Position numbers and translations under genes: made by a program. DNA of 64,000 nt from Fibrobacteria bacterium GUT307 (GTDB lineage Bacteria > Fibrobacterota > Fibrobacteria > Fibrobacterales > Fibrobacteraceae): NCBI GenBank assembly GCA_001462235.1, contig LIUI01000155.1, positions 1,766 to 65,765 on the forward strand, written 5' to 3'. This document shows, piece by piece, positions 2 to 33,739 of this stretch; position 1 is the stretch's first letter, and each line of letters opens with the position of its first letter. A model generated the notes under the pieces. That model was not told where the DNA came from, searched no databases, and saw only the letters and a list, made by a program, of their open reading frames with translations.

Positions 2-130
2 TTGAATAGCCAAATTGAAAATTTACTAGATTTACTGCGGGCAGAATTCTGCAATGCCAACACCAGGATTGCAGGAGCGACCCAAAAACAGTCCAGCGGA
101 ACGCTCACAACCGGGCAACCGGCGAGCTAG
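2..130 (+). CDS. 3' end of an ORF entering from the left edge; position fits a DGR accessory (Avd-like) gene, but this is unproven
   Basis: Open frame from the window edge to TAG at 128-130 (..LNSQIENLLDLLRAEF..). It lies immediately upstream of the template repeat, where Avd genes usually sit. No family motif recognised. Confidence 0.2.
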   Translation: MNSQIENLLDLLRAEFCNANTRIAGATQKQSSGTLTTGQPAS

Positions 131-194: not shown

Positions 195-389
195 TTTCTG
201 CTCTGCCGGGCGGCAACGGCAACTCGGATGGCAGTTTCAACAATGTTGGCAACAACGGCAACTGGTGGAGTGCCAGCGAGAACAATAGCAACAACGCCTA
301 CAACAGGAACATGAACTACAACAACGACAACGCGAACTACAACAACAACAATAAGAACAACTTGTACTCTGTTCGTTGTTTGCAGGACT
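195..389 (+). repeat. DGR template repeat (TR)
   Basis: 195 nt matching 32167-32361 with 23 mismatches, all at TR adenines. Contains 21 AAC codons in the frame of the target gene. Lies directly 5' of a DGR-type RT. Confidence 0.93.
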
Positions 390-1489
390 GTAACGGGGAA
401 GCGGTAGGGGCGTTGCATGCAACGCCCCTACAGGCTTCCCCTATCTTTTTGGAGTTGCACAGAGCCTACCTAGATGCCCGTAAACACAAACGCAATACAA
501 TAAATCAACTTAAATTTGAACGCCGTTTAGAAGTGGAATTGCTTTCTCTTTGCAAAGAGCTTGAAACCCATACTTACGAGCTTAAGCCGGGAATATGCTT
601 TATCAATGAATTGCCTGTAAAGCGTGAAATTATCGCCGCAGATTTTAGAGACAGGGTAATCCATCATTTTCTCTACAACAGGATTTATCCCGCCTTAGAC
701 AGAAAGTTTATTTACGATTCTTACAGTTGCAGGGTAGGCAAAGGAACATTGTTTGGCATAAAAAGGGTGCAAAAATTTTTGAAATCGTGCGGGGCAACGC
801 CCTGGGTTTTGCGTTTGGACATACAAGGATTTTTCATGGCTATAAACCGCAGCATCTTGTTTGATTTGATAATCAAAGGATTGCAAAATGAGATTTGCGA
901 TTTATCCAAGTTTTTAATCCGTAAAATAGTATTCAACAACCCTTTGAAAGATTCTCTTTTCAAAAGCCCAAAATCCGCTTGGAATGATTTGCCTCCGGAC
1001 AAATCCTTGATGTATTCTGCCCCAAACTGTGGCCTCCCTATAGGCAACCTAACAAGCCAGGTTTTTGCGAATGTGTATCTGAATCCCTTAGACCATTTTA
1101 TAAAAAGGGATTTAAAAATAAAGTGCTACGGCAGGTATGTTGACGACATGGTTTTAATCCACAGCGACAAGCAAATTTTGCTGAATGCAATCTTGCATAT
1201 AAGGGAATTTTTATTGAAGAAACTGAAATTGACTTTGCACCCCCGCAAAATCCGCTTGCAGCAAGCATATAAAGGCTTTGATTTTTTAGGTGCCCGCATA
1301 TCGCCTTTTTATTTAGGCCCCGGAAAACGCATTGCAGGTAATTTTTGCGAATGTATTTTTGACCCCTTGCCAAATTTTGAAAAGCAAGTGCAAAGGGTGC
1401 AGAGTTATTTGGGATTGTTGGGAAGCTTTAGCAAGCGGTGCAACATCGGGGGCATCGGAGTTCAGACAATTTTACTATGTTTACAATAA
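311..1489 (+). CDS. DGR-type reverse transcriptase
   Basis: YVDD catalytic box (YGRYVDDMVLI), PIGNLTSQVFANVYL (the DGR-typical [ILV]GxxxSQ motif) and ADFRDRVIHHFL. The ATG at 311 lies inside the TR, and there is no other ATG before the RT domain. The real start may be TTG at 449 or 455, after the hairpin. Confidence 0.9.
   Translation: MNYNNDNANYNNNNKNNLYSVRCLQDCNGEAVGALHATPLQASPIFLELHRAYLDARKHKRNTINQLKFERRLEVELLSLCKELETHTYELKPGICFINELPVKREIIAADFRDRVIHHFLYNRIYPALDRKFIYDSYSCRVGKGTLFGIKRVQKFLKSCGATPWVLRLDIQGFFMAINRSILFDLIIKGLQNEICDLSKFLIRKIVFNNPLKDSLFKSPKSAWNDLPPDKSLMYSAPNCGLPIGNLTSQVFANVYLNPLDHFIKRDLKIKCYGRYVDDMVLIHSDKQILLNAILHIREFLLKKLKLTLHPRKIRLQQAYKGFDFLGARISPFYLGPGKRIAGNFCECIFDPLPNFEKQVQRVQSYLGLLGSFSKRCNIGGIGVQTILLCLQ
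395..441. other. Long GC-rich hairpin in the TR-RT spacer
   Basis: GGGGAAGC-G-GTAGGGGCGTTGCA / TGCAACGCCCCTAC-AG-GCTTCCCC, about 22 bp of near-perfect stem. The core palindrome recurs at 11748-11775. Confidence 0.8.
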
Positions 1490-3144: not shown

Positions 3145-4947
3145 ATGGAAACCGATACCCTTGCTGTTTTAGACTTTGGTGGGCAATATGCGCACTTAAT
3201 TGCAAATAGAATTAGAAGGATTGGCGTATTTACCCGCATATTTTCGCCAGATTCTCCCGCAGAAACGCTGAACGGCGTAAAAGGCATTGTTTTTAGCGGC
3301 GGCCCTACAAGCGTTTACGGAAAAGATGCGCCTGCATTCAATAAAGAAATTTTGAATTTAAAAATTCCAATGCTGGGAATATGCTACGGCCACCAACTCA
3401 TAGCGCAATGCTTGGGTGGCAAAGTATCGCCGGGAAAAATAAAAGAATATGGCATAGCCAACTTAGAAATCACAGATAAAGAAAGTTTACTTCTTAAAAA
3501 TATTCCTTCAAAAAGCCGTGCATGGATGAGCCACGGAGACCAGGTTTCAAAACTTCCGGATGGTTTTAAAATCATAGCAATCACAAATGATTGCGAATTT
3601 GCGGCAGTTGAAAATCTTGAGAGAAAATTTTACGGCATACAGTTTCATCCGGAAGTAACGCATAGCGAATATGGCGAAAAGGTTTTGGAAAATTTTGCGA
3701 TAAATATATGTAAATGCAAAAAATCTTGGGACGTCAAAAGCTACTTGCCGCAGATAAGCGAAAAAATAATCGAAACAGTTGCAAATAAAAAAGTGTTCTT
3801 GCTGGTGAGCGGCGGTGTGGATTCTACCGTGGCATTTGTGCTTTTGAATAGAATTTTGGGCAGCGAAAAAGTCTTGGGTTTGCATATAGACAACGGCATG
3901 ATGAGGCTAAATGAAAGCCGCCAAGTGATGGATTTTTTGCAAAAAGAAGGCATGAACAATTTGCAAGTTTGCGATGCAAGCGAAGATTTTTTAAAAGCAT
4001 TGCAAGGCATTGCAGAACCGGAAGCAAAACGAAAAATTATCGGTGATACCTTTCTCAAAATAAAAGATAGGGAAATGCAGCGCCTATCGCTAAATGCAGA
4101 AGAATGGCTAATAGCCCAAGGCACTATTTACCCAGATACCATTGAGAGCGGCGGCACAAAAAATGCAGATGTGATTAAAACCCATCACAACCGAGTGCAA
4201 GGCATTCTGGATTTGCAAGAAAAGGGGTTGTTGTTAGAGCCGCTAGCAGATTTGTACAAAGATGAAGTTAGGTATTTAGGTGAAGAACTCGGCATTCCTA
4301 AAGAACTTGTTTGGCGGCATCCTTTCCCTGGCCCCGGGCTTGGGGTTCGCCTGCTATGCAGCGATGGAAAGGTTACTCACAAAACTTTTGACGAAATTCC
4401 TGATTTAAAAAACACTCTGGAAACGAATTCCTTAAAAGGGACATTGCTTCCCATAAAAAGCGTAGGTGTGCAAGGGGATGCAAGGACTTATGCCCAGCCA
4501 TTACTTATAGAAAGCGAACTTCCGTGGCAAATTTTGGAAAAGCACAGCACCGCCATTATAAACCGTTTTGCAGAAATCAACCGTTTGGCGTGGCTAGTTG
4601 GGCGTGTTGCAGATTTACCCCCGGAACCTTTGGAATTGCACTCTGAAAGAGCAGCTTTTGACCAACTCAGAATTTTTGACAATATTTGCAATAATTTTTT
4701 GCTTGAAAATAATTTATACAATAAAATATGGCAAATGCCGGTTGTTTTGCTGCCGCTTAAAGTTGCAGGCAAACCCTGCGTTCTTATGCGCCCCGTGAAC
4801 AGCGCAGAGGCAATGACGGCGAATTTTGCAAAAATAGACCAAGAATTGCTGAAAAATACTCTGTGGCCAAAGTTAAAAGAAGCTGGAGCCGGAGCATTAT
4901 TTTATGATATTACACACAAGCCGCCTGCTACTATTGAGTGGGAATGA
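3145..4947 (+). CDS. guaA: GMP synthase (glutamine-hydrolysing), long form
   Basis: GATase-1 motifs (GICYGHQL, FHPEV), ATP-PPase SGGVDS loop, C-terminal dimerisation region. METDTL start chosen because a -10 box lies just upstream. Confidence 0.9.
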   Translation: METDTLAVLDFGGQYAHLIANRIRRIGVFTRIFSPDSPAETLNGVKGIVFSGGPTSVYGKDAPAFNKEILNLKIPMLGICYGHQLIAQCLGGKVSPGKIKEYGIANLEITDKESLLLKNIPSKSRAWMSHGDQVSKLPDGFKIIAITNDCEFAAVENLERKFYGIQFHPEVTHSEYGEKVLENFAINICKCKKSWDVKSYLPQISEKIIETVANKKVFLLVSGGVDSTVAFVLLNRILGSEKVLGLHIDNGMMRLNESRQVMDFLQKEGMNNLQVCDASEDFLKALQGIAEPEAKRKIIGDTFLKIKDREMQRLSLNAEEWLIAQGTIYPDTIESGGTKNADVIKTHHNRVQGILDLQEKGLLLEPLADLYKDEVRYLGEELGIPKELVWRHPFPGPGLGVRLLCSDGKVTHKTFDEIPDLKNTLETNSLKGTLLPIKSVGVQGDARTYAQPLLIESELPWQILEKHSTAIINRFAEINRLAWLVGRVADLPPEPLELHSERAAFDQLRIFDNICNNFLLENNLYNKIWQMPVVLLPLKVAGKPCVLMRPVNSAEAMTANFAKIDQELLKNTLWPKLKEAGAGALFYDITHKPPATIEWE

Positions 4948-6673: not shown

Positions 6674-7280
6674 CTTGGTTTTGCTGGGATTTATATTAGA
6701 GGAAAATTCCAGCGGTTACGACATTATCTCTAAAATAAAGGAGCGGGAATTGGAGCGGTGGGCTATGATAAGCACATCTACCGTGTATAATCGCCTGAAT
6801 TACCTTGAAAAGCACAAATGTATAGAGGGTAAAACCGTCCAAAAGGCAAAGTACCCGCCTGCAACGGTTTATAGCATAACCGCAAAGGGCAAAGATGTTC
6901 TCAATAGGGAAGTGATGAAGCATTTAATAGGCTTTAACGATGACCCAAGAACGCTAGGCTATGCTTTTTTGTTTGGATTAGAAGACAAACGCAATTTAAT
7001 GCGGCTCTTAGAAGAACACGAGGTAAAATTGCGGGGAGAGATTGCCCGGCTAGACAAAATGATAGAAGATGAGCCAAGGCCAACTCTTTATCCCGAGGGT
7101 CCTTTTTTGAATTGCATGAGCCGCGATCACATTTTAGTTGAGCTAAAATATTTACGAGCCGCGATGCTAATTCTGCAAGACCCGGAAAAATCTGCCATGC
7201 TAAACGGATACTTTTTCATAAACTTTGGCAACCGCGAATGGCAAAAAAAAACAATCATTGGCACAGAGCATCCTGTTTAG
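6651..7280 (+). CDS. PadR family transcriptional regulator
   Basis: N-terminal PadR winged helix (LVLLGFILEENSSGYDI..STVYNRLNYLEKHKCIEG). Start uncertain (6633 TTG, 6651 or 6660 ATG). Confidence 0.65.
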   Translation: MSAMNRYDLVLLGFILEENSSGYDIISKIKERELERWAMISTSTVYNRLNYLEKHKCIEGKTVQKAKYPPATVYSITAKGKDVLNREVMKHLIGFNDDPRTLGYAFLFGLEDKRNLMRLLEEHEVKLRGEIARLDKMIEDEPRPTLYPEGPFLNCMSRDHILVELKYLRAAMLILQDPEKSAMLNGYFFINFGNREWQKKTIIGTEHPV

Positions 7281-8539: not shown

Positions 8540-8573
8540 GTGATTTTGCAAACAACTGTTGACGTTTTTTTGC
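8540..8573 (+). repeat. Conserved intergenic box GTGATTTTGCAA-CA-TGTTGACGTTTTTTTGC (copy 1)
   Basis: Near-identical to 33409-33442 and 35172-35200. Confidence 0.75.
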
Positions 8574-8597
8574 ATTTTTTTTCATTGATTATGATTT

Positions 8598-8969
8598 TTA
8601 GGAAAAACGCACCGATTTAACCGCTATTTTCCCTAAAATTTTGTTACATGCGGCTATAATGCTTGTTTTTATAGCCATAGCCTCGGCACGCCAAACGGAT
8701 GAATTTATTTTTAAGATAAGAGTTTCTTCTTTTAAAGTGACGATTATTGCTTTTTCTTGCAGATTTTTTGGTAAAATTTTGGCTTTATTCTCGTTCAAAA
8801 TAAGGACATCTTTTTGTTCCTGGCTCAAAAAATTGTTTAAAATATTTGCAGCTAAGAAGCCTGCACCGAGCGGTTCATTTTTGCATAAAGCCGGATTTCT
8901 GCGTTTTTTTTTCAATTTATCGTAAATATCGCAGGCTTCAACAAAAAAATTAGGTTCGTATTTAGTCAT
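8598..8969 (-). CDS. DUF721/DciA-like small protein
   Basis: 123 aa with size and C-terminal pattern (..LILKINSSVWRAEAMAIKTSII..) resembling DUF721 family. Confidence 0.4.
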   Translation of the reverse strand: MTKYEPNFFVEACDIYDKLKKKRRNPALCKNEPLGAGFLAANILNNFLSQEQKDVLILNENKAKILPKNLQEKAIIVTLKEETLILKINSSVWRAEAMAIKTSIIAACNKILGKIAVKSVRFS

Positions 8970-8972
8970 AAA

Positions 8973-10022
8973 TCAAAAACTTATGGATGTGTTATGCCTT
9001 TCTGTGGTGCCACCGTAAAGCCCTATATCGTGCTCGCCTTTTTCGTTTTTAAAGAAATTTGTTCTGGGTGCGGCATTTAAAGCGGGGGAGTATGTAGAAA
9101 GCCTGTATGGCAAGGAATCAAGAGGGCTTGCCTGTGGTTTAGGTGGGGCAGCCTGAGACTCCTTGTAAATATTTTGCAAATCCGGGTCTTTTACTTCTTT
9201 GATGGGAGTTGGCAGCTTAGGGTCTTTTTTTATCATGATTTTTTCTGCTTCGCTGAATTTGAAAATGGGGTCTGTGTTCATGTTTTCAAATTTGTCTTTG
9301 GTATCTTTTTTGGAAGCCAAAATTCCAACGGGGCAATAACGGCAATCGGTATCTGCGTTTCCAAAGAATATATTGTTGCGTATGCGTGGGCTGGGTCTTG
9401 AATCGGACAAAATTCCAAAACTTGAATTTTTGTAGAAGATGTTTGCTATTATTGAAGGGCGTGAGTTGTCTATATAAATGCCTGCACTCAGATTTTTGGT
9501 AAACATACAATTAAAAACAGATACATCGCCTTCGTTTTGCAGCCAAATTCCCGTGCCGTTAGATTCAAAAAGCGTGTTCCCAATATTAAACCTGCTGAAT
9601 GAGGCATTTATCGCTTTGCTTGCACCCATAATATGCAAATATTCTATGTGGATGGTTGCTCTATCTCTGTAAGGCAATCTTATTCCATCCCATTGTATTT
9701 TACCCGGGACGTGTTCTACCGGCAAAATTCGCACAGGCTTTGTTGGCGTACCTTTTATAACCAAAGTACCATAAGCCTTTATGCTTATGCCCGTAGAATC
9801 GGACCAATCAAGTTGCTTGGTTTCACCGCATTTTTCGCCCGGCACAATATACACCACCACACCGGAATCTATGGTTAGCCGCGATGCAGGCGGAATTTGA
9901 ATATCCCCGGTTATGTAATAAGGAGAACCCTCTTCTGTCCAGGTTATAGGCATATCAATTATGCCGCAAAACTCCTCTGCAAACGCAGAAACTGCCATTA
10001 TTGCAAGAATTAAAATCCTCAT
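8973..10022 (-). CDS. Secreted right-handed parallel beta-helix repeat protein
   Basis: Signal peptide. Repeated N.F..N / I..N motifs (NCMFTKN, ANIFYKN, NNIFFGN) typical of PbH1 repeats. Confidence 0.55.
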   Translation of the reverse strand: MRILILAIMAVSAFAEEFCGIIDMPITWTEEGSPYYITGDIQIPPASRLTIDSGVVVYIVPGEKCGETKQLDWSDSTGISIKAYGTLVIKGTPTKPVRILPVEHVPGKIQWDGIRLPYRDRATIHIEYLHIMGASKAINASFSRFNIGNTLFESNGTGIWLQNEGDVSVFNCMFTKNLSAGIYIDNSRPSIIANIFYKNSSFGILSDSRPSPRIRNNIFFGNADTDCRYCPVGILASKKDTKDKFENMNTDPIFKFSEAEKIMIKKDPKLPTPIKEVKDPDLQNIYKESQAAPPKPQASPLDSLPYRLSTYSPALNAAPRTNFFKNEKGEHDIGLYGGTTERHNTSISF

Positions 10023-19534: not shown

Positions 19535-19982
19535 GTTAGCAACCAAGCTCCTGATATTCCTGATAGTCGGGATTCAGGCCGCTTTTGCTATTCAGATAGA
19601 GGCGCCTAAAGAAATTGAGGAGCATGTTTTGGCATACTCAAACGAAGCAGGAGCAGAAAATATGAATGCTACTTTAAGGGTTAGCATCATAAAAAAAATA
19701 AATTGCAAGGCTTTTGCTATGAAACTTATAGATAAAAGCAAAGGAAAAACCCTCAAAGAAACAGAGCGTTGCTTTACCGAATTTCCGAATTCCGCTTTGC
19801 AAAACGGAATTTTTGAACTTTTTGGGCACAAGGTAAATACAGAAACCGAATTGAGCGAATATACAAAAACGGTTTTATTCGGAATAGGCTTTGCGGCGAC
19901 GGGGGCTTTGCTCTATTATTCAAAGCAGCCAAAGCCGGTTTACGGGTACAGCAAAAATAAAATTTCAGAGGTTGCCGAATGA
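19506..19982 (+). CDS. Hypothetical membrane protein, T6SS-linked
   Basis: N-terminal signal/TM and C-terminal TM (VLFGIGFAATGALLYY). Overlaps tssK start (ATGA). Confidence 0.45.
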   Translation: MILLQQLDFKLATKLLIFLIVGIQAAFAIQIEAPKEIEEHVLAYSNEAGAENMNATLRVSIIKKINCKAFAMKLIDKSKGKTLKETERCFTEFPNSALQNGIFELFGHKVNTETELSEYTKTVLFGIGFAATGALLYYSKQPKPVYGYSKNKISEVAE

Positions 19983-21211
19983 CCATGTTAGTTGCTTGGA
20001 AAGAGGGGATGGCTTTGTCGCAGCAACACCTGCAACAATCGGATAAATTTATCCTTGGGCATATAAAAAATGTTTCTGGTTTGCCAAAAGGAATGCATTT
20101 TGGTTTTAGCAAGTTGATATTTGAAGAAGACTTGATAAAAGACGGACAATTTGCGCTTAAAGAATGTGAAGCTGTTTTTCCAAGCGGAATTTCTTTTATT
20201 GATTACGAAAGTAAATCAGTAAAAATAGAAGCTAGAAATTTTACCCAAATTTTTGACAAGAGCTTGAATAGCCTTAATGTGTATTTGGCTTTGGATTTGA
20301 ATAAGCCAATTGAATTTTCCGAAGAGCACACTTCTCGTTTCAAGGTTGTGTGGGAAAATTGCTGGGATTTGTATTCTACAGAAAATTCAGTGCTTATACC
20401 AGTTTCCATTCCGGTTCCTTCTGTTGTTTTTGACGGGGAGTCTTTAGACGGAAAGGAATTTTTGCCGATTGCAAGGCTTTTGAGAAATTTGCAAGGCTCT
20501 TTTGAGCTAGATAAAAATTTTTATCCGCCTTTAATATCCTTGAACGGTTACGAATATTTTTCGCAAAAATTAAAATATTTTGATGCGCTTTTGCAAGGCA
20601 GAATAGCAAACATTTCTTATTCAAAAGAATTATTGCTTAAAGATTTAAAAACCTTAAGAGTGGCTTTGGGTTGTATGCAAGGCACGGATGGAGTATTGCC
20701 TTTCTTGCTTTTTTGTGAAATAGCGAAATGTTTGCAAGAGCCGTTTAATTATAATCATGCAGAATTTGACAAATGTTTCGGTAAAATCTTCACTGCATTA
20801 AACGATTTTTTATTATCCGAGAAAAAAGTTGCATTTTTGCAAAAACGCTTGCAAAAAGAAGGGCCAAGTTCATTTTTTGCAAATCTGGCAGATTTGGATA
20901 TTTCAAATGCCACTTCTGTTTGGCTTGCGGTGGAATCTAAATTATCACCGGAAGAAGCTATTAAATTTATTCCTATGCAACTTAAAATTGCTCCTAAGTC
21001 AAAATTATCCGGCATAGTTGTTAGTGCAACGCATGGCATAAACTGCATTCACAGCATTGTTCCAAAAACCATTCAAGAGATGCCCGGAACATTTTATTTT
21101 AAGCTGCAAACGGATTCTTCTCTTTGGAAAAGTTTATGCGAAGAAAGAGAACTCGGCATTTACGCACCAATAACATTGCGGGTGGATTCCATAGATATCA
21201 TAAAGGTGTAG
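19979..21211 (+). CDS. tssK: Type VI secretion baseplate protein TssK
   Basis: N-terminal WKEGMALSQQHLQQSD matches the TssK signature W.EG..L.PQHFQQ.D. Length 410 aa. Confidence 0.8.
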   Translation: MTMLVAWKEGMALSQQHLQQSDKFILGHIKNVSGLPKGMHFGFSKLIFEEDLIKDGQFALKECEAVFPSGISFIDYESKSVKIEARNFTQIFDKSLNSLNVYLALDLNKPIEFSEEHTSRFKVVWENCWDLYSTENSVLIPVSIPVPSVVFDGESLDGKEFLPIARLLRNLQGSFELDKNFYPPLISLNGYEYFSQKLKYFDALLQGRIANISYSKELLLKDLKTLRVALGCMQGTDGVLPFLLFCEIAKCLQEPFNYNHAEFDKCFGKIFTALNDFLLSEKKVAFLQKRLQKEGPSSFFANLADLDISNATSVWLAVESKLSPEEAIKFIPMQLKIAPKSKLSGIVVSATHGINCIHSIVPKTIQEMPGTFYFKLQTDSSLWKSLCEERELGIYAPITLRVDSIDIIKV

Positions 21212-21213
21212 GG

Positions 21214-21951
21214 TTAATCCTTTATGCAACGGACGGAAAGTAAATTAGTTTTTTTACCATTGTTATCATTTCTTATAGCATCGTAATCATGTAATATTCG
21301 CTTGTAATGAGCCTCACCACTTGACTCCGTAGCACTCCACCAATAACCTATGTCACCTATATCATCTAAAAAGTTACCTCCAGGCAATGCCGAAAAACCG
21401 TAATCGTTTGTACCCGTGTTAGTAGTCCAAAGATCATCATTTGCTTTTAATGCTTTTCCTGCTATTTCTGTACCGCCAACGGTTGTTATTAATGCTTCCC
21501 AGTCGGTATCATCTGGCAACTTCCAACCAATGGTAGAACAAGCAGCAGTTGCGTCTATCCAATTATACAATCTTCCGTAAATATCGCAGTTACTTTCTAT
21601 GTCACCATAACATTTACTACTTGCAGTCGCTATATTCAAGTTCTTTGCCATCCAAATTTGGTTACCTATTGTCACCCCAACAATACCATCATCACATGCC
21701 ATATATTTGGGGTCATAAGCTACTGTTCCGCATAATGCTTTAGGCCATCTGGCTTTTTCAATGTTTCCGCATTTAATTACAAATTCGGTACCATCTTCAT
21801 AAGCATCGCAACTTTGCCCATCTTTTCCATTTGTGCCTGGAGAGCCAGCTGCTTTTACACCTGTATCTACATTGTCAATAAGCCAATTGCCGTTACTGCC
21901 AATGGTTACAACGCTGCCAGATACACCCGGCAGACCTGGCTCACCAGGCAA
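21214..21951 (-). pseudogene. 5'-truncated gene fragment: collagen-like Gly-X-Y stretch plus FISUMP domain
   Basis: Frame opens right after a TAA with no ATG/GTG and no signal peptide. It begins mid collagen repeat (QPGLPGEPGLPGVSGS). The C-terminus carries YGRLYNW, GW.LP, GFSALPGG, YWWS and SVRCIKD FISUMP motifs. Confidence 0.6.
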
Positions 21952-22052
21952 GCCTGGCTGACTAGCGGAACCACTCGCTAATATAGAAAATTATTTTGCC
22001 GTGAGCCACCAGCACAAGGTTGAAAGGTGAATAGAAAAATTCTTCGATTTTT

Positions 22053-22100
22053 AATTTACTATATTACAATCTTGTGTGTGATTAGACTTAACTGTGGAGG
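22053..22100 (+). promoter_or_regulatory. Promoter plus conserved leader of the tssL-tssB-tssC unit
   Basis: AATTTACTATATTACA...TGTGTGATTAGACTTAACTGTGGAGG. The start codon lies 14 nt after GGAGG. Confidence 0.55.
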
Positions 22101-22114
22101 TATGAGGCAGTTTT

Positions 22115-23947
22115 ATGAGAAAATCTTTTATTGAGCTTTCTGAAAACATTTTTTGTTCCGTGCTTTTACTGCCGTGCGATAAAGAAATTTCGGCAGAAGA
22201 AACCAAAGGCGATTTTATAGAAAAAATAAAGGAATTTTGCAATGATTCCACAAATAACGGTTACACTGCAGGTGAAATAGAAAACGCTAAATATGCTTTG
22301 TGTGCATGGATAGACGAATATATTTACACAAATTCCGCTATATCTTCACAATGGTTTTCGCATTCCCTTGCTTTGAGCGAATTTGAAGATGCCGAAGCCG
22401 GAATACATTTTTTTGAAAGAATTGAAAATTTTCATAAAAATAAAAACTCAACTCCTTTGCTTGAATTGTATGTAAAATGCATTCTGTTTGGCTTTATGGG
22501 CAAGTTCAGAATAGGAAGCACGGCAGAGTTAAAACAAATTTTAAATTCTGCAATTTCTAAAACAAGTATGTTTTTAGATAAAATAAATTATAAACCCATA
22601 ACAAAAAACAAACACCTATTTTCATTTAGGCGAGGCATAAAAAATATCCTAATAACAGGATTTTACGAAGATAAATGTAAAAGTTCAGCAAAAACACAGG
22701 AACCACCAAAAGGGTACAAATATATATATTCCGATATGAAAAATATAGAAGAATTACCCTTTATTGACGGTATTATTTCAATAAATCCTTTATTTGAAGA
22801 AAAAGACCAAACCGAATCTTTAGAAAAGCTTTTCTCAAAGCAAAAATGCAAAATACCGCTTTATGCCGTGGCAGATTTGGAAATTCAGGAATTTGACCAG
22901 ACGTTGGATAAAAATTACGAATTTAACAGCAATCATTTGAATTACTATTTGCACAAATATTTCTTGGACGAAATTGCCTGCAAAAAGATTCTCTCCTTGC
23001 CTAGAAAATTGAAACAATTTAAAGAGACAGAAGCTTTTTATTCGTTGCCATTTTTTCCATTCATGAAAAATGAAAAACCACTTGCGTACAGCTTAGCTAA
23101 GAGAGTATTTTTTATTTTGCTTTTGGTTGCGCTTGTATTGGCTATTTTATTTTTTGTATTCTCTATTATTAATCAGCATAAAGAAGAAATCAAATCTGAG
23201 GCAATGCTTATATTGCAAAAAAGCAAACTTGATAGCATAAAAGCAGCAGAAGATAGCATGAGAGCAGCCGAAGACAGTGTTAAAGCCATGCGAGATAGCA
23301 TTAAAGCCGCGGAAGATAGCCTGAATCTTGAATTTGAAAAAAATCTTAAAAACTTAGAACTTAAATATCAAAAGCAAATTTTAGAGAAATTCCCTTTTAA
23401 GGAGGGTAAAATCCCGTCTGTAGGCGAAGTTAGCGATTATTTTGGCAAGGAGAGCGATTTTTACAAATTCCTTGACATGATAGACACAATTTCCGATGAT
23501 AGGATAAAATTCAACAAAAAAACTTTAGCTACGCTTTCGCTTCTAAAAAATAACACTTGGAGCGGCATTCCTATTAGTATAACTATTCAGGCTCCAAAAA
23601 TGGCATCCGTGACATTTGGGTTAGATAGTCAATATGTGGAAATTGAGCGTGGAAAAAGCAAAACAATAGAAATAGTTTTCCCGCAGAAAAGCAAAGGTGG
23701 CATTGAGATTGTAGCAAAAACAGCGAACAATATTTTTAGTGAAAATATCCGTGGCGAATGGAGTTTGCTTAAAATCCAAGATAGGCATGTATTTTCCTTC
23801 ATAGATAAAAGCTATTCGATTGATGTAGAATTAAACATTCGTTGGTATTTGCCAAAGGATGCTATAAAACCAAATGACTGGTTTAAACTCCGCATGGAGC
23901 CAAATTTAATAGAGAATTCCCGTTTAACCAATAACCTAGGAGAGTAG
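22115..23947 (+). CDS. tssL: TssL/DotU-like T6SS membrane protein with long extension (possible TssM-like periplasmic region)
   Basis: DotU motifs (YALCAWIDEYI, GIHFFERIE, LELYVKCILFGFMGKFR). Single TM at about residue 335 (FFILLLVALVLAILFFVF). AAEDS[MV][KR]A repeats. C-terminal FPF...EVSDYFG...F.KFL segment. Confidence 0.7.
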   Translation: MRKSFIELSENIFCSVLLLPCDKEISAEETKGDFIEKIKEFCNDSTNNGYTAGEIENAKYALCAWIDEYIYTNSAISSQWFSHSLALSEFEDAEAGIHFFERIENFHKNKNSTPLLELYVKCILFGFMGKFRIGSTAELKQILNSAISKTSMFLDKINYKPITKNKHLFSFRRGIKNILITGFYEDKCKSSAKTQEPPKGYKYIYSDMKNIEELPFIDGIISINPLFEEKDQTESLEKLFSKQKCKIPLYAVADLEIQEFDQTLDKNYEFNSNHLNYYLHKYFLDEIACKKILSLPRKLKQFKETEAFYSLPFFPFMKNEKPLAYSLAKRVFFILLLVALVLAILFFVFSIINQHKEEIKSEAMLILQKSKLDSIKAAEDSMRAAEDSVKAMRDSIKAAEDSLNLEFEKNLKNLELKYQKQILEKFPFKEGKIPSVGEVSDYFGKESDFYKFLDMIDTISDDRIKFNKKTLATLSLLKNNTWSGIPISITIQAPKMASVTFGLDSQYVEIERGKSKTIEIVFPQKSKGGIEIVAKTANNIFSENIRGEWSLLKIQDRHVFSFIDKSYSIDVELNIRWYLPKDAIKPNDWFKLRMEPNLIENSRLTNNLGE

Positions 23948-23948
23948 A

Positions 23949-24446
23949 ATGGCGAACAGTTATCAAAACGAGATCCCGCCCGCACGAATAAATATCCAAT
24001 TAAACGTGGATACGGGCGGAGCACAGAAAAAAATGGAACTTCCACTGAAGTTGCTGGTACTTGGCGATTTTAAAATGGATGGCGATGAGTCCAGACTTAT
24101 GGAACGGGAAAAGATAAACATAAATAAGGATAATTTTGATGGGGTTATGCAGTCTATGAATATAGAATTGAAAACTTCCGTTGAAAATCGCCTCAAAAAA
24201 GACGATTCAGAAATGCCCATAGAATTAAAATTCGACAGCATGAAATCCTTTGAGCCTATGGAGATAGTGAAACAAGTTCCCGATTTGAATCGCTTAATGG
24301 CTGTTCGCAATTTGATAAAAGATTTGGGTTCAAATTTACTGGACAATAGAGAATTCAGAAAAAAAATGGAAGCTATTTTGAAAGACAAAAATTCCATGAA
24401 TTCTGTTTTAACCGAACTCAAAGCAATACCGAGTGATAAGGAGTAG
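23949..24446 (+). CDS. tssB: T6SS contractile sheath small subunit TssB
   Basis: EIPPARINIQLNV...KKMELPLKLLVLGDF matches the TssB/VipA N-terminal signature. Confidence 0.9.
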   Translation: MANSYQNEIPPARINIQLNVDTGGAQKKMELPLKLLVLGDFKMDGDESRLMEREKININKDNFDGVMQSMNIELKTSVENRLKKDDSEMPIELKFDSMKSFEPMEIVKQVPDLNRLMAVRNLIKDLGSNLLDNREFRKKMEAILKDKNSMNSVLTELKAIPSDKE

Positions 24447-24454
24447 GAGGATAT

Positions 24455-25936
24455 ATGGAAGACACTCAGCTTTCTTCAATTTATAAGAGTGTAAATTTGG
24501 ATTTGCCGTCTAAGTTTATAGACCTTTCAGAGTTTAGCGACGAAACATCGCTTTCCAAGTATAGCCCTAGCGAGCGAATAAGTTCGGGTCTTAAGGCGTT
24601 TGTGCAGAGTGTTTTAGACAGTTCTGCAAGCGTAGAAAAAATAGACCGTGCCTTTATAGATTCGCTTGTGGCGTGGATAGATAAAATAGTGAGCGAACAA
24701 CTGGATGCAATTATGCACAGCACAGAATTTCAGAAATTGGAATCTTCTTGGCGTGCTTTGCATTTTTTGGTTCAACGCACCAATTTTAGAAAAAATGTAA
24801 AGATAGAATTGATAAATGCAGACAAAGAATCTATAAAATATGATTTTGAAGATTCGCCAGAAATCATTCAAAGCGGCCTTTACCGTCATATTTACAGCGA
24901 TGAGTACGATACTCCGGGTGGCGAGCCTTATGCTGCGATGATAGCAAATTATGAATTTGATAACTCCGCAGACGATATTGACCTTTTGCAAAACATATCT
25001 TGTGTTTCTGCCGCTTCGCATTGCTTGTTTGTTTCTTCCGTAGGGTCTAAATTTTTTGGAAAATCGGATATTGGCGATTTGCCAAAAATAGATGATTTAG
25101 AAAACTTTATGGAAAAAGCAGAATACACAAAATGGCGTGGATTCCGCAAAACAGACGATTCTCGCTATATAGGCCTAACTTTGCCTAGATTTTTGTTGAG
25201 GAATCCTTATGGCGAGGGCAAGAGTGCCAGGGGTTTTAAATATACGGAGTCTGTTCTGGGCGGAGAGCACGAAAAATATTTGTGGGGAAACTCGGCATTT
25301 GCTTTTGCCGCAAATATGGTTCGTTCTTTCCAAGATAATGGTTGGTGCGTTCAAATCAGAGGCCCGGAGAGTGGTGGCAAAGTTGAAGATTTGCCAATAC
25401 ATCTCTTTAACTCTGGCAAAGGAGCGCAAACAAAAATCCCAACGGAAATTTTGATTCCTGAAACCCGTGAATTTGAATTTGCAAAGCAGGGCTTTATTCC
25501 GCTGAGTTTTTACAAAAACCGCAATTATGCTTGTTTTTTCTCGGCGAATTCCACTCAAAGGCCAGAAGAATACGATGATGCACAGGCTACCGCAAACTCA
25601 AGGGTGAATTCTCGTTTGCCTTATATATTCCTTACCGCAAGGCTTGCGCATTACCTAAAAGTTTTGCAGAGAGAGAATATTGGAGCAAGCAAGAGCGCGG
25701 GCATTTTGGAAGCGGAACTTAACAACTGGATAAAAGGGCTTGTGACGGAAATGGAAAATCCAGGTCCAGAGCTTGCAGCAACTCATCCTTTGAGTTATGG
25801 GCAAGTGACGGTTGCCGAGAATCCAGATAATCCCGGATTTTTCAAGGTTGCTCTTTCCGTTGTTCCACATTTCCAGGTAGAAGGCGTGAATGTGAATTTG
25901 TCATTGGTGTCTAAGATGCCAGCGGCAAAGCAGTAG
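24455..25936 (+). CDS. tssC: T6SS contractile sheath large subunit TssC
   Basis: F.KLESSWRALHFLV, LYRHIYSDEYDTPGGEPYAAMIANYEF and SAASHCLFVSS match conserved TssC/VipB blocks. Confidence 0.9.
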   Translation: MEDTQLSSIYKSVNLDLPSKFIDLSEFSDETSLSKYSPSERISSGLKAFVQSVLDSSASVEKIDRAFIDSLVAWIDKIVSEQLDAIMHSTEFQKLESSWRALHFLVQRTNFRKNVKIELINADKESIKYDFEDSPEIIQSGLYRHIYSDEYDTPGGEPYAAMIANYEFDNSADDIDLLQNISCVSAASHCLFVSSVGSKFFGKSDIGDLPKIDDLENFMEKAEYTKWRGFRKTDDSRYIGLTLPRFLLRNPYGEGKSARGFKYTESVLGGEHEKYLWGNSAFAFAANMVRSFQDNGWCVQIRGPESGGKVEDLPIHLFNSGKGAQTKIPTEILIPETREFEFAKQGFIPLSFYKNRNYACFFSANSTQRPEEYDDAQATANSRVNSRLPYIFLTARLAHYLKVLQRENIGASKSAGILEAELNNWIKGLVTEMENPGPELAATHPLSYGQVTVAENPDNPGFFKVALSVVPHFQVEGVNVNLSLVSKMPAAKQ

Positions 25937-30633: not shown

Positions 30634-31515
30634 ATGAACGCATTTATGAGAAAAATACTATGCATCTCGTTTCTCTTTGCTATTGCCGCTTATGGGCAGC
30701 AGGAACGCATAGCAATAATGAACACTGTTGACAACAAAGATTCCATAGCTTTTTTGGATTTGAGCTATTTAACGGACAAGCTCCGCGACATAGCAGGCAA
30801 GATTCTGCCTCAAAGCCGCTATGGCATAATGACCCAGCAGAGCATAGTTGACCGCTTAGGCTCTCAAGAACGGGCTATAAAGGAATGCAAGGAGGCAACC
30901 TGCTTGGCAGATTTGGGCAGGAAAATCAGTGCAGATTACATAGCTCAGGGGCATGTTGGGCGTTTTTCTGGTGAATTGACTATAAAGGTAGAGCTTTACA
31001 ATGTAGGTAGCAGCAACTTGATTGGCTCGTTCACTGGGGATTCCAAAGATTTGAAGGGTTTGCTTTCTGTTTTGGAGGCTAAGGCTCCTAAGCTTTTTGA
31101 AGATATGATTTCTACAACTAAGGAAAAAGAAAAGCCTGCACCGCCACCTCCTGCTCCGGAAAGTGCCTGGGATTTAGTGGGGAGGGCGAGCGATTTAGAG
31201 GATGCTGTTGATGTTGAGCTTGGCTACAAGTTGCCGGCGAGGGTTGACTCTCAGGTGAATACGGAAGAATACCGGCCTTCCAATAACTCTTTTTGGATTG
31301 CTCTTGCATTGGATGTAGCAGGTGCCGCATTTGTGGGTTATGGCATATACAAGAATAGTGAAGTGCTTAACAAGCATGAAGAATACGGTGATTTACGTTC
31401 CGGTTTTGGCAATTCTTGGGAAAAAGTGGAGGATGCCAAAACATCAAGGAATGTTTCTTATATTTTGGGCGGCGTGCTTTTGGCATCGGGAATAGGAGTG
31501 CATATATGGTTTTAG
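30634..31515 (+). CDS. Hypothetical secreted/membrane protein
   Basis: Signal peptide, Pro-rich linker (KPAPPPPAPE), two C-terminal TM segments. Overlaps the start of the DGR target gene. Confidence 0.5.
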   Translation: MNAFMRKILCISFLFAIAAYGQQERIAIMNTVDNKDSIAFLDLSYLTDKLRDIAGKILPQSRYGIMTQQSIVDRLGSQERAIKECKEATCLADLGRKISADYIAQGHVGRFSGELTIKVELYNVGSSNLIGSFTGDSKDLKGLLSVLEAKAPKLFEDMISTTKEKEKPAPPPPAPESAWDLVGRASDLEDAVDVELGYKLPARVDSQVNTEEYRPSNNSFWIALALDVAGAAFVGYGIYKNSEVLNKHEEYGDLRSGFGNSWEKVEDAKTSRNVSYILGGVLLASGIGVHIWF

Positions 31516-32363
31516 TTATGATTATAGCATTCCTGTTTTTGGGGTGCGCAGAAGTTGAGCGAGACAATCCTTATGATCCGGATGGGATTAATTACAACCC
31601 CAGCCTTGTTGCAATTTCCAGCTCCTCTGTCCGCAGCTCAAGTTCATCCATTCCACCGCCAAGCTCCAGCTCCTTTGCTCCAAGTTCAAGTTCGTCAAGT
31701 GTTGCTCCGAGCAGTAGTTCAATTAGTTCGTCTTCGTTGTCTAGTTCGTCTGCACCGCCACCAAGCTCTAGCTCCTTAGCCAACGTTGTTTATGGTACTC
31801 CCGTAGATTATGGTGGCGAAACTTATCCAACGGTTATTATAGGCACTCAAACTTGGTTTGCTAAGAATTTGAATTACGATCCCGGCACAGGCAATTCTGG
31901 TTGCTATGATTGTGCGACTTATGGCCGTTTATACGATTGGGCAACGGCAATGGATCTTCCATCAAGTTGCAACTCAAGTAGTTGCTCAAGCTCAATACAG
32001 TCAAAGCATCGTGGTATTTGCCCTTCTGGTTGGCATATACCGAACAATAATGATTGGGATGCGTTGATGACAGCTGTTGGCGGTAGTGGTACAGCAGGCA
32101 AGCATTTGAAGGCTAAAGAAGGCTGGAATCCCTACAGCGGCATAGAGAACTTGGACACCTACGGATTTTCTGCTCTGCCGGGCGGCAACGGCTACTCGGA
32201 TGGCAGTTTCGGCAATGTTGGCTACGACGGCTACTGGTGGAGTGCCAGCGAGGTCAATAGCAACTACGCCTACGGCAGGGGCATGAACTACTACTACGAC
32301 TACGCGAGCTACAACTACAACGATAAGTTCGGCTTGTACTCTGTTCGTTGTTTGCAGGACTAA
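31506..32363 (+). CDS. FISUMP-domain lipoprotein, DGR variable target protein
   Basis: Lipobox (FLFLGC), Ser-rich linker, FISUMP motifs (YGRLYDW, GWHIP, GFSALPGG, YWWS, SVRCLQD). The last 65 codons are the VR. Confidence 0.85.
   Translation: MVLVMIIAFLFLGCAEVERDNPYDPDGINYNPSLVAISSSSVRSSSSSIPPPSSSSFAPSSSSSSVAPSSSSISSSSLSSSSAPPPSSSSLANVVYGTPVDYGGETYPTVIIGTQTWFAKNLNYDPGTGNSGCYDCATYGRLYDWATAMDLPSSCNSSSCSSSIQSKHRGICPSGWHIPNNNDWDALMTAVGGSGTAGKHLKAKEGWNPYSGIENLDTYGFSALPGGNGYSDGSFGNVGYDGYWWSASEVNSNYAYGRGMNYYYDYASYNYNDKFGLYSVRCLQD
32167..32361 (+). repeat. DGR variable repeat (VR)
   Basis: Matches TR 195-389 over 195 nt. All 23 differences are at TR adenines (16 of 21 AAC codons plus one AAT). The 3' 28 nt are identical to the TR. 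Confidence 0.93.
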
Positions 32364-32389
32364 GCGGTTGGGTGCTTGCACCTAGCCGC
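32364..32389. other. Hairpin immediately 3' of the VR and stop codon
   Basis: GCGGTTGGGTGC-TT-GCACCTAGCCGC forms a 12-bp stem (two G-U pairs). A second 7-bp stem follows (CGCCGCT...AGCGGCG, about 32388-32414). Confidence 0.7.
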
Positions 32390-32474
32390 CGCCGCTAGCC
32401 TTGGCAAGCGGCGCAACATGAAGCTGTGAGCGTTTATGTATGGCATTGCGCCGGGGCGTGGCGGGGCGAATTTT

Positions 32475-33339
32475 TTAGCTTAGACTATGCGTCCCGGTTA
32501 GGCGGAAATGTTTTTTTTTGGCTTTATCCATGGCAATCTTCTGTTTCACATCAGCTAAAGACATGCCGCTTTCCCAAAGAGAAAATACTTTCTCAACGCC
32601 AATCTCAATGCCTTCTTCCTTCTCAACCTCAAGGGCTGTTTCAAGATTCCATTCTTCGTCAAACATATTCAATACCTCCGAGCCGTGCTTTTCAAGAAAA
32701 TATACTAAAATACCACGCTCAATGCAAGTTTTTATGGCTGCCGCTATGGCTGCGTCTTTATCCATAGTTTCCATGTTCTTCTTAACCTCTGCTATCAACT
32801 CACTGTAACCGCTTAGATTGGGACTCCTTTGAATCATGCTCGCATTGCGGCCTTTGTTGATGTTGTAAGCCTTAACTACCAACTCAAGATTGGGAACGCC
32901 TTGACCAAGCTCAAAAAAATCGGACAATCTCATTTCCGTGAAATCGGCCATCTCTTTTTCGCCATTGTATAATGGCTATAAATTCCGGGGATGGTATTTT
33001 AATTTTATGCTCCTTGTACAAATCTCTGCGATTTGTGAGCCTTTCGTATTCGCGAGCTATGTATATAAGCATTCTGAGCGGCATATTTTCGTTTATTGAC
33101 GACTGGTGCTCTATCAATACCACCAGTTTATCCTCAATCACAAAAGAGATGTCGTTCAGTTGTTCCATGTAGAGGGCGTCAGAAAGAGTCACAATTTTGA
33201 TTTTTGTACTTTCTGGGTAGTTTTTACCGCTAATAGCGTTGTATAGCTCCAGAGCTTTTTCGGGTGTTCCGAAGAGCTTTGTGAAGACGCTGTTTTTGTA
33301 TTGGCGGTTGGTCGCGGCTTTGCCTGCATTTTCTTCCAT
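32475..33339 (-). pseudogene. Frameshifted Rpn/YhgA-like PD-(D/E)XK nuclease (putative transposase) gene
   Basis: ORFs 32911-33339 and 32475-32951 are two halves of one gene. A third frame reads ..PEFIA-LYNGEKEMADFTEMRLSDFF across about 32952-32976. YKNSVF and LIEHQSSINENMPLRML motifs. Confidence 0.7.
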
Positions 33340-33408: not shown

Positions 33409-33442
33409 GTGATTTTGCAACAAGTGTTGACGTTTTTTTGCG
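33409..33442 (+). repeat. Conserved intergenic box (copy 2)
   Basis: GTGATTTTGCAACAAGTGTTGACGTTTTTTTGCG. Same position relative to the ECF-type promoter as copy 1. Confidence 0.75.
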
Positions 33443-33739
33443 TTTTTTGCAATTTTTTAAAATCCCCTAAATCCCAAAAATCGGGGGCATCGAGGTTCTG
33501 ACATTTTTTTTACACTTTTTTTACATTTTTTTTTGACTTTCTCTCAAAAAAAAATATATATTTATGTGTATAATGTTGTATAACACCCCAAATACAGCGA
33601 AAGGAGCTTGCAGTGCAGGCAAAGCCTTGCACCCTTGACCCAAGCGTTGGCAATGTCATCATAATATATATATACGCATTCAAATTTCTTCCATATTTAA
33701 GCCCAAAAAAGCCCAAAAATTTACAAGAATTTTACAATT

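Follow-up and report, generated by a model that had tools for sequence, protein, structure and literature searches.

The diversity-generating retroelements (DGRs) described so far that most resemble the one reported here are those of phage BPP-1, Legionella pneumophila and Treponema denticola. In BPP-1, the experimental prototype (gene order mtd-avd-TR-brt), an Avd-type gene, a template repeat (TR) and a reverse transcriptase (RT) with an IGxxxSQ motif accompany a variable repeat (VR) at the 3' end of the target gene. The L. pneumophila DGR is chromosomal and not phage-borne; it has an AAC-rich TR and diversifies the C-terminal ~60 residues of LdtA, a lipoprotein of the Fib_succ_major/DUF1566 type that is encoded beside its cassette. 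In T. denticola, one TR serves multiple dispersed targets (TvpA), which are of the FGE-sulfatase type, and non-adjacent targets lie past unrelated genes and differ from the TR by A-to-N changes only. That DGRs act in trans was demonstrated experimentally long ago. In BPP-1, homing requires inverted repeats rich in GC that lie 4-34 bp past the VR (Guo et al. 2011, PMC3240598). A survey of 372 DGRs found non-adjacent targets in 45 of them (~12%), from a few kb to Mb away, with 'remote' reserved for distances >100 kb, and placed DUF1566/DUF823/Fib_succ_major targets in category d (14% of DGRs, all with CLec2 VRs, exemplar Legionella LdtA) (Wu et al. 2018, PMC5758913); metagenome surveys miss non-adjacent targets (Roux et al. 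2021, PMC8144416). Here, we analysed a stretch of 64,000 nt (the window; G+C 41.4%) from contig LIUI01000155.1 of Fibrobacteria bacterium GUT307 (assembly GCA_001462235.1), in which a DGR cassette at one end shares a repeat with a distant gene for a protein with a Fib_succ_major (FISUMP) domain. The G+C content is close to the 41.5% given for population genome IN01_307 in PMC4704652, to which this DNA may belong. Our literature search found no paper linking DGRs with termite-gut Fibrobacteres.

We conclude that, in this termite-gut member of the Fibromonadaceae, a chromosomal DGR very probably uses the repeat in the distant gene as a non-adjacent target. When the whole window was searched for repeats, one long direct repeat was found, 195-389 and 32167-32361 (195 nt, 88% identity, ungapped), with a start-to-start distance of 31,972 nt. 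The features that carry this conclusion are the following.

195..389, + strand: TR, 195 nt with 65 adenines, defined by repeat search and base-by-base comparison
32167..32361, + strand: VR, encoding target residues 222-285 (the last 64), 17 of which differ from the TR-encoded sequence
32334..32361, + strand: 3' end of the VR, at the position of the initiation of mutagenic homing (IMH) sequence, 28 nt identical to TR 362-389
31506..32363, + strand: target gene, encoding a 285-aa probable lipoprotein (MVLVMIIAFLFLGC...) with a Ser/Pro-rich linker and a FISUMP domain

The preliminary description of this DNA had claimed that TR and VR align over 195 nt without gaps and differ only at TR adenines, that 16 of 21 AAC codons and one AAT are affected, and that the terminal 28 nt are identical; base-by-base comparison bore out all of this. 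TR and VR have 23 mismatches, every one at a TR adenine (hypergeometric P = 4.8e-13 for 23/23 mismatches hitting 65 A's among 195 positions), while the TR non-A positions are identical in the VR (130/130). When the TR is read in the frame of the target gene, 16 of its 21 AAC and one of its three AAT codons are changed in the VR, and no other codon is. The TR adenines occupy codon positions 1 (31) and 2 (34) and never position 3. The 28-nt end, TTGTACTCTGTTCGTTGTTTGCAGGACT, is present in exactly two copies in the window (0 expected). The first 26 nt of the repeat, on its 5' side, are also identical in the two copies; similarity is lost abruptly outside the repeat at both ends, and the VR ends at the first base of the target's TAA stop codon. 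The substitutions comprise 12 A>G, 11 A>T and no A>C, and the recoded residues are Tyr (8), Gly (4), Asp (2), Val (1), Ser (1) and Phe (1).

The pairing of this VR with this TR is specific. The VR scored 23/0/0 against the window TR, versus 15-36 non-A mismatches against each of seven other TRs of the family. A scan of the whole window on the TR non-A positions detected no further VR, the next best place agreeing at 58/130. The 28-nt end had no exact match in genome_contigs and metagenome_contigs, collections that do not contain the source genome, and a 22-mer scan matched VRs of other DGRs only and no TR.

The target protein is on record as P0241 (exact match). Its open reading frame (ORF) starts with a lipoprotein-type signal (MVLVMIIAFLFLGC) and matches Fib_succ_major PF09603 (residues 110-283) and TIGR02145 (104-285) at E 4.7e-41 and 7.8e-26, and the VR runs to its stop codon. 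Thus, the target is a probable FISUMP-domain lipoprotein with a VR at its C-terminus, as had been proposed; a protein search returned no orthologue at >76% identity and hence no series of alleles. The window encodes three FISUMP genes, and it had been stated that the other two lack similarity to the TR so that targeting is selective. Direct comparison and a shuffled control agreed with this: the 3' end of the gene at 21214-21951 (- strand) is not TR-like (62 non-A mismatches and 18 gap columns against the TR), and the gene at 62820-end scored no better against the TR than shuffled sequence.

The FISUMP domain had also been placed among targets of the C-type-lectin fold. This agrees with category d of Wu et al. 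2018, and it is on that published classification, rather than on our own fold search, that we provisionally assign the fold. An AlphaFold2 model of the domain (pLDDT 87.6, pTM 0.84) had no Foldseek hit in the PDB at E <= 0.001. The best, non-significant hits were the Legionella Lcl C-terminal domain (E 0.02), 4eps and Bd2740, followed by many C-type-lectin-like domains at E 0.1-3; a Bacteroides fimbrial protein was also among the weak hits. Among predicted viral structures (BFVD), the model matched phage FISUMP proteins (E 4e-13) and, weakly, DUF1566 proteins. With the full-length model, Foldseek gave no informative result owing to the disordered linker, and the FISUMP profile had no match among PDB sequences.

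The part of the TR-containing cassette that lies in the window occupies its first 1.5 kb.

2..130, + strand: 3' end of an Avd-like accessory gene, the last 42 codons and TAG stop; the remainder lies upstream of the window start
395..441, + strand: GC-rich extended stem-loop 3' of the TR, GGGGAAGC...GCTTCCCC enclosing GTAGGGGCGTTGCATGCAACGCCCCTAC, starting after 5 nt
449..1489, + strand: DGR RT, start uncertain (TTG 449 or 455, or the in-frame ATG 311 inside the TR)

The RT ORF, which begins 60 nt past the TR end (389 to 449/455), is identical to the database protein P0121, matches PF00078 (RVT_1) at E 1.5e-16 and contains the motifs LPIGNLTSQ and YVDD in its translation. Its closest solved relative is 8ub7_A (entries 8ub7-8ube; E 3.8e-30), a 328-aa reverse transcriptase that we take to be the RT of the BPP-1 DGR; group II intron maturases, retron RTs and a Cas6-RT-Cas1 fusion followed at E 4e-8 or worse. 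Relatives at 77-87% identity were found only in metagenome-assembled genomes (MAGs) of termite-gut Fibromonadaceae, and many DGR RTs of Legionellaceae were among the relatives at 45-51% identity. From ATG 311, the start used by database gene callers, one reading frame runs through both TR and RT (311-1489), so the two have been annotated as one Fib_succ_major + RVT_1 protein (e.g. P0128 and P0129), an artefact that is common across the family.

The frame +2 translation of bases 2-127, LNSQIENLLDLLRAEFCNANTRIAGATQKQSSGTLTTGQPAS followed by the stop, is the exact C-terminus of P0250, a protein of 262 aa recorded on the same 77,968-nt source contig as the RT, the target and further proteins of the window. 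The window start therefore cuts the DGR cassette inside the Avd-like accessory gene. P0250 and the accessory protein of the sister DGR locus L001 share 86% identity; the C-terminal half of the L001 protein matches bAvd PF22296 weakly (E 8.9e-5, 23 bits against a cut-off of 40 bits), and among the P0250 homologues several have precomputed PF22296 hits or are named 'four helix bundle protein'; a search of PDB sequences returned no match for the Avd-like protein.

The region 380-479 had a predicted folding energy of -48.2 kcal/mol, and a stem-loop of other sequence was predicted at the equivalent site in all five sister loci folded (L001, L003, L007, L021 and L051). On the TR flank, Rfam gave only chance-level hairpin hits. 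The stem-loop at 395..441 would be the structured 3' part of the DGR RNA. Its core is a palindrome, GTAGGGGCGTTGCAYGCAACGCCCCTAC (404-431), that is also present in L001 at 9438-9466 and about 9955-9982. One L001 copy is located inside the avd coding region, where the Avd protein of the window reads VGALPATPLL; thus, a repeated structured element occurs on both sides of the TR.

Compared with described DGRs, the locus has a DGR-type RT, an adenine-only TR/VR pair, a TR beside the RT, a VR at the 3' end of the target and hairpins past the VR. The target also has the attributes of non-adjacent targets in Wu et al. 2018, i.e. A-to-N differences only, no other DGR (no RT or TR was found near the VR) and unrelated genes between the two repeats; at 31,972 nt, it falls short of the >100 kb required of a strictly 'remote' target. 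TR and VR are separated by ~30 ordinary chromosomal genes, including those for GuaA, LysA, NamZ and methylmalonyl-CoA mutase and a type VI secretion cluster; because they are housekeeping and type VI secretion genes, the element is cellular and not a prophage. Together with the perfect fit of the VR to the window TR at non-A positions, this sustained the earlier claim of trans-acting homing across about 30 unrelated genes. It had further been suggested that a target at this distance is unusual: the non-adjacency stood (in trans, 31.8 kb), but 45 of the 372 surveyed DGRs have such targets and the word 'unusual' goes too far.

The VR (residues 222-285) overlaps the Fib_succ_major domain, which places the target in category d with its CLec2 VRs; that category was described with weak and mixed domain matches, whereas the Fib_succ_major match here is clear (E 5e-41). 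With the L. pneumophila DGR, the locus shares a chromosomal, non-phage location, an AAC-rich TR and diversification of the C-terminal ~60 residues of a lipoprotein of the same type; unlike LdtA, the target is 31.8 kb from its cassette. The resemblance to T. denticola lies in one TR serving a non-adjacent target past unrelated genes with A-to-N differences only; the differences are that one non-adjacent target is visible here and that its fold class is FISUMP. BPP-1 is matched in the putative Avd-type gene, the TR, the IGxxxSQ RT, the VR at the 3' end of the target and the GC-rich inverted repeats 3' of the VR, which are inside the 4-34 bp range of Guo et al. 2011. In contrast to BPP-1, the element is cellular and not phage-borne, has no (GC)14 and has two hairpins and a conserved box after the VR instead of one hairpin with a GRNA loop. 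Moreover, TR and VR share an identical 3' end of 28 nt, so that there is no distinction of IMH and IMH* inside the repeat, and directionality must come from sequences beyond it. Finally, the accessory protein is about twice as long as a typical Avd and has an N-terminal extension.

The target gene is preceded by a partner gene, and the pair has a homologue on another contig.

30634..31515, + strand: partner gene for a 293-aa protein that has a signal peptide and C-terminal hydrophobic segments and matches no Pfam family

The partner gene overlaps the start of the target gene by 10 nt, so the two are probably co-transcribed; a scan for sigma-70 promoters and terminators around the target gave background level only. 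The gene pair, with the identical 10-nt overlap, and its downstream sequence are also present on L053, an 80.6-kb (80,610-nt) contig, in another genomic context. The flanks of this module are 84-92% identical between the window and L053. Within the VR, the two copies agree at 127/129 TR non-A positions (98.4%) but at only 31/63 TR-A positions (49%). Therefore, both copies were recently overwritten from near-identical templates, diverging only where the template has an A. Among the TRs of the family, the L053 VR fits only that of the window (26 A mismatches, 2 non-A); it might conceivably be a third target of this TR in one and the same genome, although it has a 3-nt deletion. No RT was recorded on the L053 contig among the best 120 RT hits, and the L053 VR therefore appears to be located away from its cassette. 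Its template is probably a very similar TR in a sister genome, and could conceivably be a paralogue in the same genome as the window. On a metagenome contig (L056), a domain homologous to the partner protein and a FISUMP domain with a VR-like end are fused in a single ORF (3306-4526), which points to a functional link between partner protein and FISUMP protein; the contig has three VR-like segments, including 2552-2740 and 7050-7186.

Three elements follow the VR in close succession.

32364..32389, + strand: hairpin 1, a predicted fold that starts 3 nt past the VR
32390..32413, + strand: hairpin 2, CGCCGCTAGCC-TT-GGCAAGCGGCG, common to the non-adjacent VR and the cassette-adjacent VRs of sister DGRs
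32422..32476, + strand: sequence-conserved box with the core GTGAGCGTTTATGTATGG at 32426-32443, GGGGCG... and a T-run end at 32471-32476

Hairpin 1 differs in sequence and length among loci, and a hairpin was predicted at the site in every one; in L053 it is longer and in the same position (GGGGTGCTC-TAG-GAGCACCC). Hairpin 2 has 9 base pairs, with 98.7% of cells paired in nine sequences and compensatory changes in 3/9 pairs, and its covariation score was reached by none of 500 shuffles. The box core occurs once in the window (0.08 expected) and once each in L001, L003, L007, L021, L051 and L053, always about 50-75 nt past the VR end. RNAalifold on the post-VR region gave no consensus structure for the box, only hairpin 2 being convincing, and Rfam had no match on the VR flank. 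In the five sister loci other than L053, hairpin 1, hairpin 2 and the box come in the same order and span the interval from the target stop to the avd start codon; all three are also present 3' of the L053 VR. In the window, by contrast with these five loci, the post-VR stretch occurs without avd, at a distant gene and with the two-gene module of partner and FISUMP lipoprotein. This two-gene module lies in differing genomic contexts on the two contigs, beside an Rpn/YhgA-like nuclease gene.

By analogy with BPP-1, the hairpins may act in homing, and their presence would explain why the FISUMP gene 31506-32363 is targeted over its paralogues. More speculatively, the ~110-nt post-VR stretch (hairpins 1 and 2 and the GTGAGCGTTTAT...GGGGCG box) might be a portable target-site cassette needed in cis, such that the lineage gains targets by moving a 'VR end + recognition module', with the box as a new recognition element beyond the single hairpin of BPP-1; we regard this as rather unlikely.

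All six sister loci that have sequence upstream of the TR contain a FISUMP VR there, at a VR-TR spacing of 1.1-1.2 kb in L001, L003, L007, L021 and L051 and of about 0.9 kb in L046; in L007, another VR lies farther upstream, at about 1.7 kb. The complete order of FISUMP target with VR, Avd-like gene, TR and RT was read in L001 only. This pattern indicates that an adjacent target probably lies outside the window and that the VR studied here is an additional one; judging from these arrangements, a cassette-adjacent target is most likely located just upstream of the window, the FISUMP gene at 31506-32363 being the second one.

The sister loci also revealed how templates and targets are combined in this family. 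In Candidatus Fibromonas termitidis (L007), tandem VRs (2611-2804 and 3169-3362) lie upstream of one TR; both have 31-32 mismatches at A and 0 at non-A, and the first is followed by neither a stop codon nor the hairpin module. Two cassettes each are present in MAG GUT31 (LIUH01; L001 and L051) and in Nx346_bin46 (L003 and L021). In GUT31, the L001 VR (8561-8755) fits its own adjacent TR poorly (9 non-A mismatches), but fits the TR of the L051 cassette (9768-9962) with 21 A mismatches and 0 non-A, which suggests either cross-cassette templating or a decayed TR in L001.

We propose the following scheme, which builds on the TR/VR anatomy, RT type, accessory gene, domain and downstream elements observed here and on the adenine-restricted divergence of the two module copies, and which for the RNA and cDNA steps and for surface exposure would follow the BPP-1 paradigm. 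The cassette (Avd-like gene, TR 195-389 and RT to 1489) would be transcribed to give a TR-containing RNA. The RT, together with the Avd-like protein, would convert the TR to cDNA with misincorporation opposite template adenines, and the cDNA would be substituted for the 195-nt homologous stretch in the 3' end of gene 31506-32363, which encodes the lipoprotein. Integration would be guided on the 3' side by the 28-nt identical end and the hairpins just past the stop codon, and on the 5' side by the 26-nt identical start. Because TR adenines are at codon positions 1 and 2 only, mostly in AAC codons, up to 24 Asn residues can be recoded without creating stop codons; the AAY codons alone allow about 15^24 variants. 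The outcome would be a variable ligand-binding tip on a surface lipoprotein.

Several observations weigh against this interpretation. The lack of A>C among 23 substitutions is unexpected under equal misincorporation ((2/3)^23 ~ 9e-5) and therefore implies a bias of the RT or selection; the absence of A>C and the Tyr/Gly-rich recoding might stem from a misincorporation preference of the RT or from selection for an antibody-like surface rich in Tyr and Gly. The hairpins depart from the phage consensus, with a bulged A.A in hairpin 2 and a TT/CTTG loop instead of GRNA. The L053 VR has two non-A changes and a 3-nt deletion relative to the window TR, and so is not simply a second product of that TR; a TR of its own was not found for L053. 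Lastly, present-day activity of the element, and with it ongoing diversification of the VR, is presumed by analogy with active DGRs. An alternative is that the VR was written by the DGR in the past and is a fossil target, a frozen variant at a site, or in an element, that is now inactive. The family does contain decayed TR/VR pairs (the L001 VR mentioned above and the downstream VR of L021, which has many non-A mismatches), and the split Rpn-like gene beside the target is a case of local gene decay. However, the VR has 0/130 non-A mismatches while the homologous flanks have diverged by about 15%, neither the RT ORF, which retains its catalytic motifs, nor the target ORF is disrupted, the accessory gene has its full length, and the downstream hairpins have been kept with compensatory changes; we therefore consider a fossil target improbable.

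The VR could also have been templated by a near-identical TR of a second DGR elsewhere, its pairing with TR 195-389 being incidental. The two cassettes per sister genome in GUT31 and Nx346_bin46, and the perfect fit of one cassette's VR to the other's TR in GUT31, would allow this. Yet the duplicate cassettes of sister genomes differ at at least 9 non-A positions, so that a second TR that also fits perfectly would be a coincidence, the window TR itself fits at 130/130 non-A positions, and exact-match scans of the two contig collections named above, which lack the source genome, detected no second TR; the probability we give to a second template is very small. For a large paralogous family with three members in the window, one might imagine that the repeat is simply conserved between two FISUMP-like paralogues, or was made alike by gene conversion, without any retroelement. 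The mismatch spectrum refutes this: every mismatch hits an adenine of the A-rich copy, at the first or second codon position (P about 5e-13). In addition, the A-rich copy is itself non-coding and lies 60 nt from a DGR-type RT, and the other FISUMP paralogues have no nucleotide similarity to the TR, leaving a practically negligible chance for such an origin. Altogether, the reading of the VR as a non-adjacent target of the cassette in the window accounts best for these observations.

The chromosomal surroundings of the target contain further features. The type VI secretion cluster (19979-25936) includes genes for TssK/VasE (19979-21211), a DotU/IcmF-like protein (22115-23947) and the TssC sheath protein (24455-25936), and the undiversified FISUMP gene at 21214-21951 (- strand) sits between tssK and the DotU-like gene. 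Directly 3' of the target (32475-33339, - strand), a split gene for an Rpn/YhgA-like PD-(D/E)XK nuclease/transposase consists of two overlapping ORFs. The 2.2-kb module in common with L053 takes in the 3' part of this gene, where the module is most strongly conserved (92%). A T-rich direct repeat of 41 nt, AACAACTGTTGACGTTTTTTTGC..., is present at 8551-8591 and 33419-33459 (83% identity) in two intergenic regions separated by 24.9 kb, and may serve both as a promoter or regulatory element.

The arrangement described here is already known from other DGRs and leaves the current understanding of these elements unchanged. What is added is the lineage, the comparative sign of recent adenine-restricted rewriting and the post-VR module common to adjacent and distant targets. 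Adjacent and distant target sites across related genomes constitute a natural data set on what DGRs need downstream of the VR. For the organism, which belongs to an uncultured lineage of Fibromonadaceae from termite guts, the locus is a well-documented case of a chromosomal DGR whose diversified surface lipoprotein is encoded at a distance from the cassette. FISUMP proteins form the signature paralogous family of the Fibrobacteres, and programmed hypervariation of a FISUMP C-terminal tip supports a role of this domain in ligand binding or recognition, which could bear on how the cells attach to fibre, evade phages or interact with other cells in the gut.

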